Source: Eledone cirrhosa | Taxonomy: Eukaryota | Direction: 5' to 3' | NCBI GenBank assembly: GCA_964016885.1 | Contig: OZ024742.1 | Location: 273,172,001 to 273,236,000, forward strand | DNA length: 64,000 nucleotides | In this document: positions 28,670 through 62,562 of the stretch, one piece after another | Position numbering within the stretch: the stretch's first letter is position 1 | How the letters are laid out: each line of letters begins with the position of its first letter | Made by a program: the position numbers and the translations under genes | Notes under the pieces: generated by a model | Told to the model about the DNA's origin: nothing | The model's database searches: none | What the model saw: only the letters and a program-made list of their open reading frames with translations

Positions 28670-29376
28670 GGTATGCTGGCCTAACAACAATTAGAGATTT
28701 GTTTTGGACCTCTGAAATAGCGATGTATATATGAACATACGTATTGTATATTTAATAATAGAGTGTATGTTATTGAATTTAAACATTTCATAAACATAAT
28801 TGGTATTCTATAATTATCCATCTGCTACAGCTCACAACGAAATGACAGGCGATATATAACCTTGATAATCGCTAAACAACAAGCAATGATCGTCGGTTAT
28901 TTACATTTTCTTTTGGTGAAATAGGTATGTGACTACAGTCAAACATTAAATTCATAGCAAAAGGCCTACAGAATATTTTAAAAATAAACATACAGTATAT
29001 CATTAGATATACTATGCGTACATTCATATATACTTCGCTATTTCAGAGCTCCAAAACAAATTTCTAACTGTTGCTAGTCCAGCAACAGCTCAATATGTTA
29101 ATGAGTTGACACAACTCATGACCATAATTGGTATTCTATAAGAATCCAGCTGCTACAGCTCACAGCAAAAACAGAGGCGATATATAACCTTGATAACCGC
29201 TAAACAGCGCGAAACGCTCGTCGGTTATTTCCCTTTGATTTTGCTGAAGATAGGTATGTGACTATAGTCGCTTCCTTGAATTAATAACAAAATGCCTCCA
29301 ATTGTGTTGATATAAACTTACAGTACATTATTAAATATACAATACATTTATTCATATATATACATCATTATTTCAG
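28670..29376. repeat. Family G ~328-bp tandem unit with an inverted flank; HHRs at 28856-28900 (degenerate) and 29184-29228
   Basis: ataacc-TTGATAA-cgct/aaac/agcg-GAAA-cgctcg-TC-ggttat. Confidence 0.75.
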
Positions 29377-29399
29377 ACCACGTAGATCTATTCTTACTA

Positions 29400-30565
29400 T
29401 TTTCAATCGAGGAGGGACCCCCTCATGTAGGTGGAGGCCTGTACCATGGTGATGGTCTTTTGACCATGATCAAGTGCGGAACCTTAGGAAAGATCTTATC
29501 GGTTTCTTTAAAACCTTCAACCTGTCCATTCAAGTTGCGGCCAACCTTTCAATTTTGAACTTCCTGATGTAACACTTAACTAGTCGAATGGCTTGCACTA
29601 CCCGTATAGAAAGCGTAAGGAAACGCTAAATTACATTAGTAAGCATTCTAACCATCCAGAACCATCTAAAACACGTTTCATTGAGGCTTTCTCATCCATC
29701 AGCAAAAATGCATATCTTCACCAATCATTCCACATATTACAATTATGCTTTAGCTCGGAGAATATTTGTCGATAAGGTAGAATATACTAATTGCGAGCCT
29801 AAACCTTGGAAAATATATCCCGAAGTATTATATGGTAAATATATAAAAATGGTCTGGCCACATCAAATGCAAACAATCTTTCTCCCTTTAATTATGAAGC
29901 ATTTCCACTTCGCACACAAATATATTAATATATTTAATAGAAACATTGTTAAAATAAATCACACAACAAATATAACCTTCATACACAACATCAATGCATC
30001 TAATTTACCAATTTTACCTAGACATAGTAATACAAGCAATCCAGTAGATAGTCCTAGCTATAATTGTAGTAATAGGGAAGACCACCCTCTATCCAGGAAA
30101 TGCCTATCCAGTAATATAGTCTAAAATGTAAGGTCTACATAGGGTTAACTGCCAATAGATTCCAGCAGCGTCTATACATGCACGCCCATTCTTTTTATGA
30201 CGCATTAAGAAGAAACATGACGTCACTTTCGGCCTGCATCAAATGTCCCTAAGATAACCAGATCCGATATAGTTTCCACTGGGAGATTCTAGCAATGCTA
30301 GATCGTATAATGGAAACATGCGATCTTTGCGCCGCCTAAACACTGGAAATACTCTGGAAATATCCCTGGAAATATCCCTGGAAATACTTCTTGTCAACGA
30401 TTTAATTTCAAACAAAATATCCAAGACAATTTCAGCTTGTAAACACGAATTGCATAAGGAAGTATTATAGCCCTACATTATATCCTCACAGATAGTACGG
30501 ACAATACGCTGCTAATACAAGTCATGATATGGGCACAACTTCACGAACCAACGTATGGTCGTCCT
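29400..30565 (+). pseudogene. Decayed PLE RT + GIY-YIG
   Basis: GLYHGDGL, PYRK..LNYISKHSNHP, PLSRKCLSSNIV, YIGLTANRFQQR; degenerate HHR-like tail at ~30521-30563. Confidence 0.75.
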
Positions 30566-31250
30566 GTTTTTCTTCGCTTGTAATGTTTTCTGAAAGTTTA
30601 CTTCTGCGTCCACAGATTTATTTTTTCAGTTTAAGAAGATCATGTTGAGGGCAAAAGCAGCGATTATTTGCATAAACATTACCTATTCTTATAATAAATA
30701 TATATGTGTATATTTATATTTGTGAATTTCATATATTAAACGATATACAGTATGTTTTATAAATAAATAATTTGAATGCCCAGGTATGAATTGAAGTCTG
30801 ACGGCCAGCGCCGTCTAGTGGAATCATAGCTGGGATTTGAAAGTGTTTATTTATTAAATCACTGTATATCTTTTGACATACGGCATTCACACACAATGTA
30901 TGTATATAGGCATCTCGAAGCTGAATCTTAATACACACACACACACACACACACACACACACACACACACACACATACACACAAACACACACACACATAT
31001 ATATATATATATATATATATATATATATATATATATATATATATATATTATATATATATAACGTTTTTTTTTCCATTTCAGGTAGACGTGCTCCATCATC
31101 CACTTTTCTAAAAAAAAATCATGTACAAAACGCTAGCACCAACAGTTTTACAAGAAATGTCAACATGAATGGACCTGTTATTTTTATCTAAAGACATGTT
31201 TTCCAATTCCATCCCACCCGTCTCCTCAATCTATTTTATTTCTTATTCTT

Positions 31251-31286
31251 TCTTCTGATGAAGGAGTAGCATCCGAAACGTTAAGA
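31251..31286 (+). ncRNA. Minimal type I hammerhead
   Basis: tctt-CTGATGA-a-gga/gtagca/tcc-GAAACGT-T-aaga. Confidence 0.8.
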
Positions 31287-31392
31287 CACTCTTCGTGCTA
31301 TATCAAGCGTTAACCTAATGTATACCTTCCATATACTGTACCGATTGTGTAGTTATTTCTGTTTACATTTTACATACATTTATATATATATA

Positions 31393-60760: not shown

Positions 60761-60814
60761 AGTTTGCAATTATCAACTGCTGAAAATTGCAAACTTGACT
60801 GCCACCACTGAATA

Positions 60815-60853
60815 TGACCCTGAAGATTGTGAAAACATGAAAGTACTTGTTCA
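60815..60853 (+). ncRNA. Minimal type I hammerhead
   Basis: tgacc-CTGAAGA-tgt/gaaa/aca-GAA-AGTACT-T-gttca. Confidence 0.7.
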
Positions 60854-60957
60854 ATTAACATTTAACATTTTACCATATTATTTCATTATAATATCATTAA
60901 AATTTAAACATTGTAAATAAAAGTTGGAGTTCCTTTTATTATTATATATATATAGTC

Positions 60958-61480
60958 GGAAAAAATGAAACGAAATTTCATTTCCCACACTTAGTACGGC
61001 TGTTACTTAAATATAAGTGTATACACGTAAATACATATATTTATACAGACCTACAGTAGCATGTATATATATATACACACATGCACACATATATATATAT
61101 GCACGTATGGATTCACCGAACATTTATTATAATGTTCGGTGTGTTTGTAAACAAACATCCCGTATTAAACCGTAGTGTCTAACAACCATCGTTGCTCGTT
61201 TGTTCAACACTGACAAAGGAACGCTGTACTAGTTTCAAGCTTATTAGCTATCATCAGCAACGTATACATTTCTGCCAGATTGCTGAACGTATATACTTAC
61301 ATTATGCATATTAACGGCTGAGTAGCCCAATTTGAATATCGAGTGTGTTAATCGGCCGGGTGCACCGAAAACGATAAACGGAAAAAATGAAACGAAATTT
61401 CATTTCCCACTCTTAGTACGGCTGCTATTTAAATATAAGTATGTACACGTACATACATATATGCATATATATAGTATATG
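60958..61480 (-). repeat. Family E retrozyme-like unit, HHR at 61222-61262 (CTGATGA core)
   Basis: Closest to the 11560-12095 copy. Confidence 0.85.
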
Positions 61481-62562
61481 TATATATATATATATGTATA
61501 TATATTAGAATTGGTGCCTCTTAAATAGCGATATATATATGAATGTATATATAGTGTATTTTGCAATACAATGTATGCTTAATTAAAAGCATTTAGAAGA
61601 CCTTACGCTATTGTTTTAGAGTAGTAACAGTCTCACTTACTTTAATTTTCAGCAAACAGGGAAGATAAAGCTGACACAGATCTGTTTCGCACTTTTTGGT
61701 GTTTATCAAATCTAAGTACTCCGCCTGTTTGCTGAAAAAAAATATATATATTCATACATACATACATACATTATTATATATATATATATATATATATATA
61801 TATATATATATATATATATATATATATATGTATGAATGTATGTATCCATGTATGTATGTATGTATATATCCCAGTACAACCTGTCTCATGGTCGGCTCGT
61901 TGGCGACTAAACTGGGAAACCCACCAAGGTTTCTTGGTGAGGAGGGTGACTTTGGACATCGGCAGGTCTAAAATCAAAATCTGTCAAAGGGAAAAGGAGC
62001 TCTTAAGAGTCAATGGCCATCCAAAATCACCGGGAGAGATGAGCCCTTAGCCTTTGTCAAGGCAGAATTCTATGAGAAGGAAAACTCTGATATAACACCT
62101 GCAACTCTGATGTTATCCAATGATGTTCACGTGTTCTTCTTTTTGGTAAATATCATCTTGGTTAAGAGAGTGGGACTGGCTTTGTGCAGTGCCTTTGCTC
62201 ACTATAAAAGCTTCACGACACAGGTATTGCTTTATATCTGGAGATCTCTCTACACTTGTCGTCACATGGTACCATGGGCCCAGCACTATGTGTCAGTAAT
62301 TGTCACAGGTGTAGTGTTTGTACCAGAGTTTTCAAGTCGCTGGCTGGACTAAAAATCACACTCGTTCAGCGCATCGGTAGGAGTTCTCCTACATGGATAT
62401 AAAGTAGTGGCCGTACTCGAAAACGAGTTGGCAGCCACCATGTATTTATATATATATATATATATATATACATATATATATATATATATATATATATATA
62501 TATATATATATATATATATATATATATATATATATATATGTATATATATATATAAATATATA

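Follow-up and report, generated by a model that had tools for sequence, protein, structure and literature searches.

A U3-A8 hammerhead core probably inherited at the family level in Penelope-like elements and retrozyme-like repeats of Eledone cirrhosa

The U3-A8 form of the hammerhead core is not new—it has been in print since 2011 and known in Penelope-like elements (PLEs) since 2014. The portions of Perreault et al. (2011, PMC3088659) available to us describe a natural U3-A8 variant and state both the pairing of positions 3 and 8 and activity in vitro, in line with the background invoked in an earlier sequence-only reading of the locus considered here. Minimal hammerheads with U3-A8 are likewise described for Cercyon PLEs of Schistosoma mansoni in the accessible text of Cervera and De la Pena (2014, PMC4209133), according to which PLE hammerheads are weak and likely active as dimers; retrozymes, according to the sections of PMC7229834 at hand, are cut to monomers and circles.

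We analysed a stretch of 64,000 nt (the window) from the octopus Eledone cirrhosa (GCA_964016885.1, contig OZ024742.1, positions 273,172,001 to 273,236,000 of the forward strand). The sampled genome comprises 3.0 Gb, and the window, with a GC content of 36%, carries abundant (TA)n tracts and inverted repeat pairs throughout, as well as broken PLE open reading frames with matches to RVT_1 and GIY-YIG. Nine core heptamers had been cited by the sequence-only reading, and a check of the window confirmed each in its place:

28862, 29190 and 36314 (plus strand), 34497-34503 and 61703-61709 (minus strand): TTGATAA, exact match
43913 (plus strand), 39091-39097 (minus strand): TTGAAAA, exact match
48645 (plus strand): TTGATGA, a U3-G8 core
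4486 (plus strand): TTGACGA, a U3-G8 core

These heptamers are common on both strands across the window (TTGATAA, n = 26; TTGAAAA, n = 33) and are thus uninformative without their surroundings. At eight of the nine cores, a type I hammerhead is completed by stem II, GAAA, stem III, NUH, and stem I, the exception being 28862, where the GAAA box is gone. The nine cores belong to five repeat families: A (28862, 29190), B (34503 minus, 36314), C (48645, 61709 minus), D (39097 minus, 43913), and E (4486). Majority copies of all five follow the core order (C/U)UGAN(G/A)A, GAAA, NUH, from which the single copy at 28862 departs, and positions 3 and 8 hold Watson-Crick letters at the family level in A to E, though not in the individual copies at 48645 and 4486. 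A search of the window against Rfam returned no family at gathering score; the best among the matches listed (150 of 219) was Hammerhead_HH9 at 48629-48703, with 28.9 bits against a threshold of 52 (E 0.004). Nine more hammerhead-like motifs in the window have the usual C3-G8 core:

2935(-), 4883(-), 8134(-), 10418(-), 11468(-), 11790(+), 27704(+), 31715(-), 61257(-): further C3-G8 motifs

Apart from these, a tandem repeat of near-identical 615-nt units occupies 62563-64000 and continues past the window end, and frames resembling an endonuclease and a reverse transcriptase mark a broken element at 51379-53661, which we take to be LINE-like.

We consider it highly likely that the cited sites are copies of type I hammerheads from the 3' ends of PLEs (B, D, E) and from retrozymes of ~320 nt (A, C), and that U3-A8 in families A to D was inherited from the source elements. 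This reading draws on motif anatomy, family states, and element context, and on the C3-G8 sister families found for D and for A and C. Positions 3 and 8 were tallied over the first 100 matches to family patterns that carried N at both positions and were run on the whole genome; the same patterns read backward gave 0 matches every time, and exact patterns are biased toward young copies with no bias at positions 3 and 8. Family B (308 matches) yielded 97 UA, 1 UG, 1 AA, 1 GA, and 0 CG among the first 100 listed; family C (180 exact matches) 96 UA, 2 UG, 1 CA, 1 UU, and 0 CG; and family D (963 matches) 98 UA, 1 UC, 1 AA, and 0 CG. For family A, all five matches to the blind pattern were UA, as were 34 of 35 copies collected by BLAST (the other being CA), a set biased by its query. 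The tabulation of positions 3 and 8 that had been proposed thus returns U3-A8 as the family-level compensatory state, with UA dominating A, B, C, and D rather than scattered with UG and CA over a C-G consensus. Family E is instead a C-G family: among the first 100 listed of its 8404 matches, 95 were CG, 3 CA, 2 UG, and 0 UA, and its sister copies at 2935(-) and 27704(+) read C3-G8. The two U3-G8 cores once regarded as intermediates therefore lose that status, since each is a private change—A8 to G in U-A family C at 48645, and C3 to U in C-G family E at 4486:

4486..4519, plus strand: family E PLE hammerhead, U3-G8 in this copy

A wider survey covered 1.064 Mb, made up of the window plus 100 ten-kb stretches (98 across 12 contigs and 2 adjoining the window), with a descriptor that was free at positions 3 and 8 and was composed after viewing the window motifs. 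At a score of at least 21, it gave 85 matches against 1 in the reversed sequence; a complement control is the same as the reversed one and hence adds no second control. These matches comprised 65 CG, 14 UA, 4 UG, 1 CU, 1 AG, and 0 CA, so that 79 of the 85 were CG or UA. When stem II was allowed up to 110 nt and query-collected loci were added to the sample, 287 matches formed 54 clusters: among 22 with multiple copies, 16 were CG, 5 UA, and 1 a CG/UG tie, with none having a UG or CA majority, and the 32 singletons were 20 CG, 5 UA, 2 UG, 2 CA, and 3 other. Of the five UA clusters, only that of family G was found blind, the queries having enriched the other four; the clusters are not independent. 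One UA copy (L013, cluster 31) is related to C-G cluster 4, which indicates that double changes at the level of single copies are possible. Cluster counts were also compared by Fisher tests (p 4e-5; 3e-4 once lineages were merged), which score the tie as CG and ignore relatedness, and we place no reliance on them. Likewise, change rates in core and flanks (A 0.026/0.067, C 0.008/0.019, B 0/0.021, D2 0.016/0.041, E 0.013/0.010) are confounded by CpG and subfamily sites and were set aside as evidence. Folded without constraint, the hammerhead was the lowest-energy structure for one of 11 sequences (48645).

The non-coding families A and C are represented in the window by the following features:

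29190..29222, plus strand: family A type I hammerhead, U3-A8 core at 29190-29196, GAAA at 29211
28862..28895, plus strand: decayed upstream copy of family A, U3-A8 core retained, GAAA box lost
28766..29377, plus strand: non-coding, retrozyme-like unit of family A, by self-alignment
48645..48681, plus strand: family C hammerhead, U3-G8 in this copy, predicted cut after C at 48681
61673..61709, minus strand: decayed family C hammerhead whose U3-A8 core lies at 61703-61709

In the motif at 29190, stem II (CGCT/AGCG) lies behind a mismatch at 10.1/11.1, and the predicted cut follows C at 29222; the enclosing unit has a period of ~328 nt in almost two tandem copies and is accompanied by an inverted piece at 28674-28771. 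Decay of the minus-strand C copy has turned the first stem II base from G to A and altered stem III. Aligned over the whole unit, A and C are 65% identical (210/325, E 8e-28), and we treat them on this alignment as one retrozyme lineage. Being homologous, they do not count separately among what had been described as four unrelated families, a description that survives as up to three lineages among the cited sites. Units of both are non-coding and tandem, spaced 319-328 nt apart with (TA)n at the end, and have no consistent upstream open reading frame; in being short non-coding tandem units with one type I hammerhead, both resemble non-LTR retrozymes. No PLE protein lies upstream in the sense direction at 35 of 37 A matches; the two A matches in the window have antisense PLE protein matches only, and one of the 37 has a sense protein match, of family E. 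A link between the C copy at 48645 and the PLE frame at 44961-47960 was considered and rejected, since other copies of that PLE continue without C. Contigs under a second organism label (X5) cover the C unit with a 319-nt back-joint and, among the rows listed, no difference at positions 3 and 8, a hint drawn from three contigs over the core.

The C3-G8 counterpart of A and C is R8, which forms 310-311-nt arrays with 3750 matches (100 of the 100 listed were CG, with 0 UA) and is ~60-65% identical to each of them. A, C, and R8 are roughly equidistant; on these identities, we place one or more swaps, in either direction, within the lineage that joins A and C to R8. Across A, C, C2, C3, and R8, four of five stem II pairs show changes on both sides, with a covariation of 0.573, whereas slid partners reach 0.116 at most. 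Arrays of R8 are young and have two arms, in which 310-311-nt units follow one another along one strand up to a run on the opposite strand:

L263-L274 (G000:C1:1238362-1245157) and L200: two-armed R8 arrays

Family D belongs to a coding element and offers the clearest polarity:

39004..39097, minus strand: family D hammerhead, U3-A8 core at 39091-39097, GAAA at 39015
43913..44006, plus strand: inverted copy of family D, one change weakening stem I
41254..42614, minus strand: broken open reading frame of the Hydra-clade PLE carrying D

Here, GAAA stands 82 nt beyond the core, past a 75-nt segment, and after it come a short stem III and GUA; at 39004..39097 the 75-nt stem II is branched, with closing pairs TTGG/CCAA, and the predicted cut falls after A at 39004. 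An initial view of D as something other than a hammerhead was abandoned on the strength of the distant CCAA-T-GAAA half, the C-G sister family D2, and C-G motifs with long stems, whose frequency supports D as a hammerhead (at score 21, 21 of 27 long-stem matches were CG, against 4 control matches). This genome holds many type I hammerheads whose stem II is 45-100 nt long, and usual descriptors would miss them:

Window 39004-39097(-) and 10418(-); L282:1548; clusters 7, 10, 12, 15, 19: examples with long stem II

A near-intact D frame (locus L253) contains RWK, DKT, a CxCx5C linker, and CxxC and CxH in the endonuclease, the motifs given for Hydra-clade PLEs in the consulted part of PMC8557442, and the D hammerhead lies 570-970 nt downstream of this type of frame. 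An apparent D-type hammerhead on a non-Hydra frame (L261) proved to be a nested insertion, which carries a C-G hammerhead of its own. The sister D2 reads C3-G8 in 38 of 38 aligned matches, some of them at overlapping loci. It shares the long stem II of D, its endonuclease is ~60% identical, the two 3' ends align at 68% identity (E 3e-11), and the families are joined in the endonuclease tree with support 97/93. The next branch (92/94; L160, L008) is also C3-G8, a state read by eye or loose script from two copies. With D2 and this branch both C3-G8, U3-A8 appears to be derived in D. Stems I, II, and III can form in D and D2, as read.

Family B is the weakest of the four U-A motifs:

36314..36344, plus strand: family B hammerhead-like motif, U3-A8
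34473..34503, minus strand: inverted copy of family B, core at 34497-34503
34260..36554: remnant of a family B PLE, made up of two inverted 3' halves

The motif at 36314 has a U-U mismatch at 10.1/11.1, a palindromic stem III, and a proximal stem I of just 2 bp, with which its constrained fold comes to +2.3 to +3.9 kcal/mol. Each half of the remnant holds the end of a GIY-YIG endonuclease (CX4CxxC linker) with the hammerhead 430-450 nt later; in the family, the hammerhead sits 430-550 nt after a PLE endonuclease distinct from that of D, a near relative of which is only 22-29% identical to the D protein. Families B and E are candidate Neptune/Nematis-type PLEs: the linker CX2-5CxxC, which in that type precedes a C-terminal GIY-YIG domain, is present in both, and a relative of B has a Pfam match to GIY-YIG, as E does weakly. 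We found no C-G sister family for B. A fairly intact related PLE, with reverse transcriptase and GIY-YIG, lies at 44961-48522 of the window, and the 3' ends of four of its copies gave no clear hammerhead.

Two additional U-A families, G and the Hydra family H7, were met in the genome. The hammerhead of G is compact, with a standard stem II and U3-A8 in 11 of 11 copies, and no PLE protein is consistently upstream of it:

L012:2273, L173:3186, L215:7507: family G loci

Several families also appear to combine a U4C core (CCGAUGA or CCGAAGA) and C3-G8, and some of them lie in Hydra PLEs and have a long stem II; the random sample held 10 such CG matches against 1 in the control:

L160:5736(+), L008, L151, L229, L236, L181/L189, L169/L237: U4C loci

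In both D/D2 and A+C/R8, the presence of C3-G8 relatives, equal GC, and covarying stems points to a compensatory change on source elements, one that likely preserved the predicted cutting. The motifs would cut the element transcript after GUC (A, C) or GUA (B, D), probably as dimers formed through the palindromic stem III, and would thereby supply unit-length or circular RNA to the PLE reverse transcriptase. If source elements need a cutting ribozyme and selection is restricted to elements still transposing, C3-G8 and U3-A8 would found families, and U3-G8 and C3-A8 would be confined to decayed copies; the path probably included a U-G wobble that was short-lived and gave rise to no family. The earlier proposal that the swap marks functional ribozymes may accordingly be retained for source elements, where family sequences favour it, and not for the window copies, several of which are decayed. 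The swap likely occurred at least twice, in the D lineage and the retrozyme lineage, and perhaps four or five times, B, G, and H7 being unpolarised; a single event shared by D and A+C is disfavoured by the alignments. AT-biased mutation, which had been raised as a possible mimic, does not explain the swap at the family level, given the near-identical GC of sisters (A/C 0.33-0.37 vs R8 0.35; D 0.33 vs D2 0.32), the paired changes in stems, and the gain of a core C in other families (U4C).

Among other explanations, it is possible, if unlikely, that U3-A8 arose independently four or five times (D, H7, B, G, A+C) because it was favoured, for example if a slower ribozyme let longer transcripts escape cutting. 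If true, D/D2 and A+C/R8, together with the giant branched stem II of D, would be natural experiments on a catalytic core pair crossing a fitness valley. Somewhat less probable is that the U-A sources had lost their ribozyme, or nearly so, with U3-A8 fixed by drift and transposition independent of cutting. Very successful PLEs without canonical hammerheads, such as Naiad (in the accessible text of PMC8557442), and the low in vitro activity of animal PLE motifs (as given in the available part of PMC4209133) are compatible with such loss, as are the missing G10.1-C11.1 pair in A, B, and D, the poor folding of B, and the lack of a clear hammerhead from the four 3' ends of a related PLE family at ~70% amino-acid identity to B. 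On the contrary, the remaining core letters are fixed across 35-40% divergence while stems covary, clusters with a UG or CA majority are absent, sister families are equal in GC, and active ribozymes with a U-U mismatch at 10.1/11.1 are known (PMC3088659, in the portions available). We regard as very improbable the spread of a single ancient U3-A8 hammerhead among PLE clades and retrozymes by template switching: although short look-alike words near the core and stem III are common to B, D, and G, the D hammerhead and its flanks are homologous to C3-G8 D2, the A/C monomers are homologous to C3-G8 R8, and no significant alignment (E 1e-6) links the U-A clusters B, D, G, and A/C. Finally, two independent transitions through AT-biased decay of single copies are scarcely credible, for while the window is just 36% GC, 1-3 of every 100 copies carry a single change, and a UA copy exists near C-G cluster 4, both changes are expected in at most 0.25-2% of copies at 5-15% divergence, the U-A families are 96-98% UA with 0 CG among matches listed, and the 200 listed C-G copies of E and R8 include 0 UA.

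The family states give comparative evidence of selection for the active-state 3-8 pair in the hammerheads of animal PLEs and retrozymes, despite weak cutting in vitro, and the pairs of C-G and U-A sisters can serve directly as test sets. Since standard descriptors and Rfam miss such motifs, counts of ribozymes in animal genomes are too low. In the partial library of literature searched, we found no sister-family comparison of the core swap; from sequence comparison, we contribute the tally by family, strike out the "intermediates," and polarise one swap, in a Hydra PLE whose stem II is giant, though such variants may already sit in published supplements (for example, file S2 of PMC8557442).

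The closest parallel, as far as the available text of PMC4209133 goes, is with Cercyon PLEs, which likewise carry type I hammerheads in PLE 3' repeats with U3-A8 covariation (~1,300 matches there), palindromic stem III, and copies that are mostly single or inverted. Unlike those, the Eledone motifs retain a stem III, though a short one, stem II is 75-93 nt long in some, and U-A lineages are paired with C-G sisters, a comparison that does not appear in the text available. The same 3/8 covariation and the U10.1-U11.1 mismatch are described among the variants in the accessible part of PMC3088659, where the examples are rare, whereas here whole repeat families of hundreds of copies are involved. 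Families A, C, and R8 resemble animal non-LTR retrozymes (PMC7229834; Li et al. 2026, bioRxiv 10.64898/2026.07.22.740005; both as partly available) in being tandem units that are non-coding, ~310-330 nt long, and low in GC, each with a single type I hammerhead; set against these retrozymes, A and C differ in their U3-A8 core, their mostly one to three units, and their inverted ends. Finally, D is like the Hydra-clade PLEs of Craig et al. (2021, PMC8557442) in its 3' hammerhead, (TA)n flanks, and protein motifs; whereas Hydra hammerheads are called canonical in the portion of that paper at hand, the D hammerhead combines U3-A8 with a 75-nt stem II.
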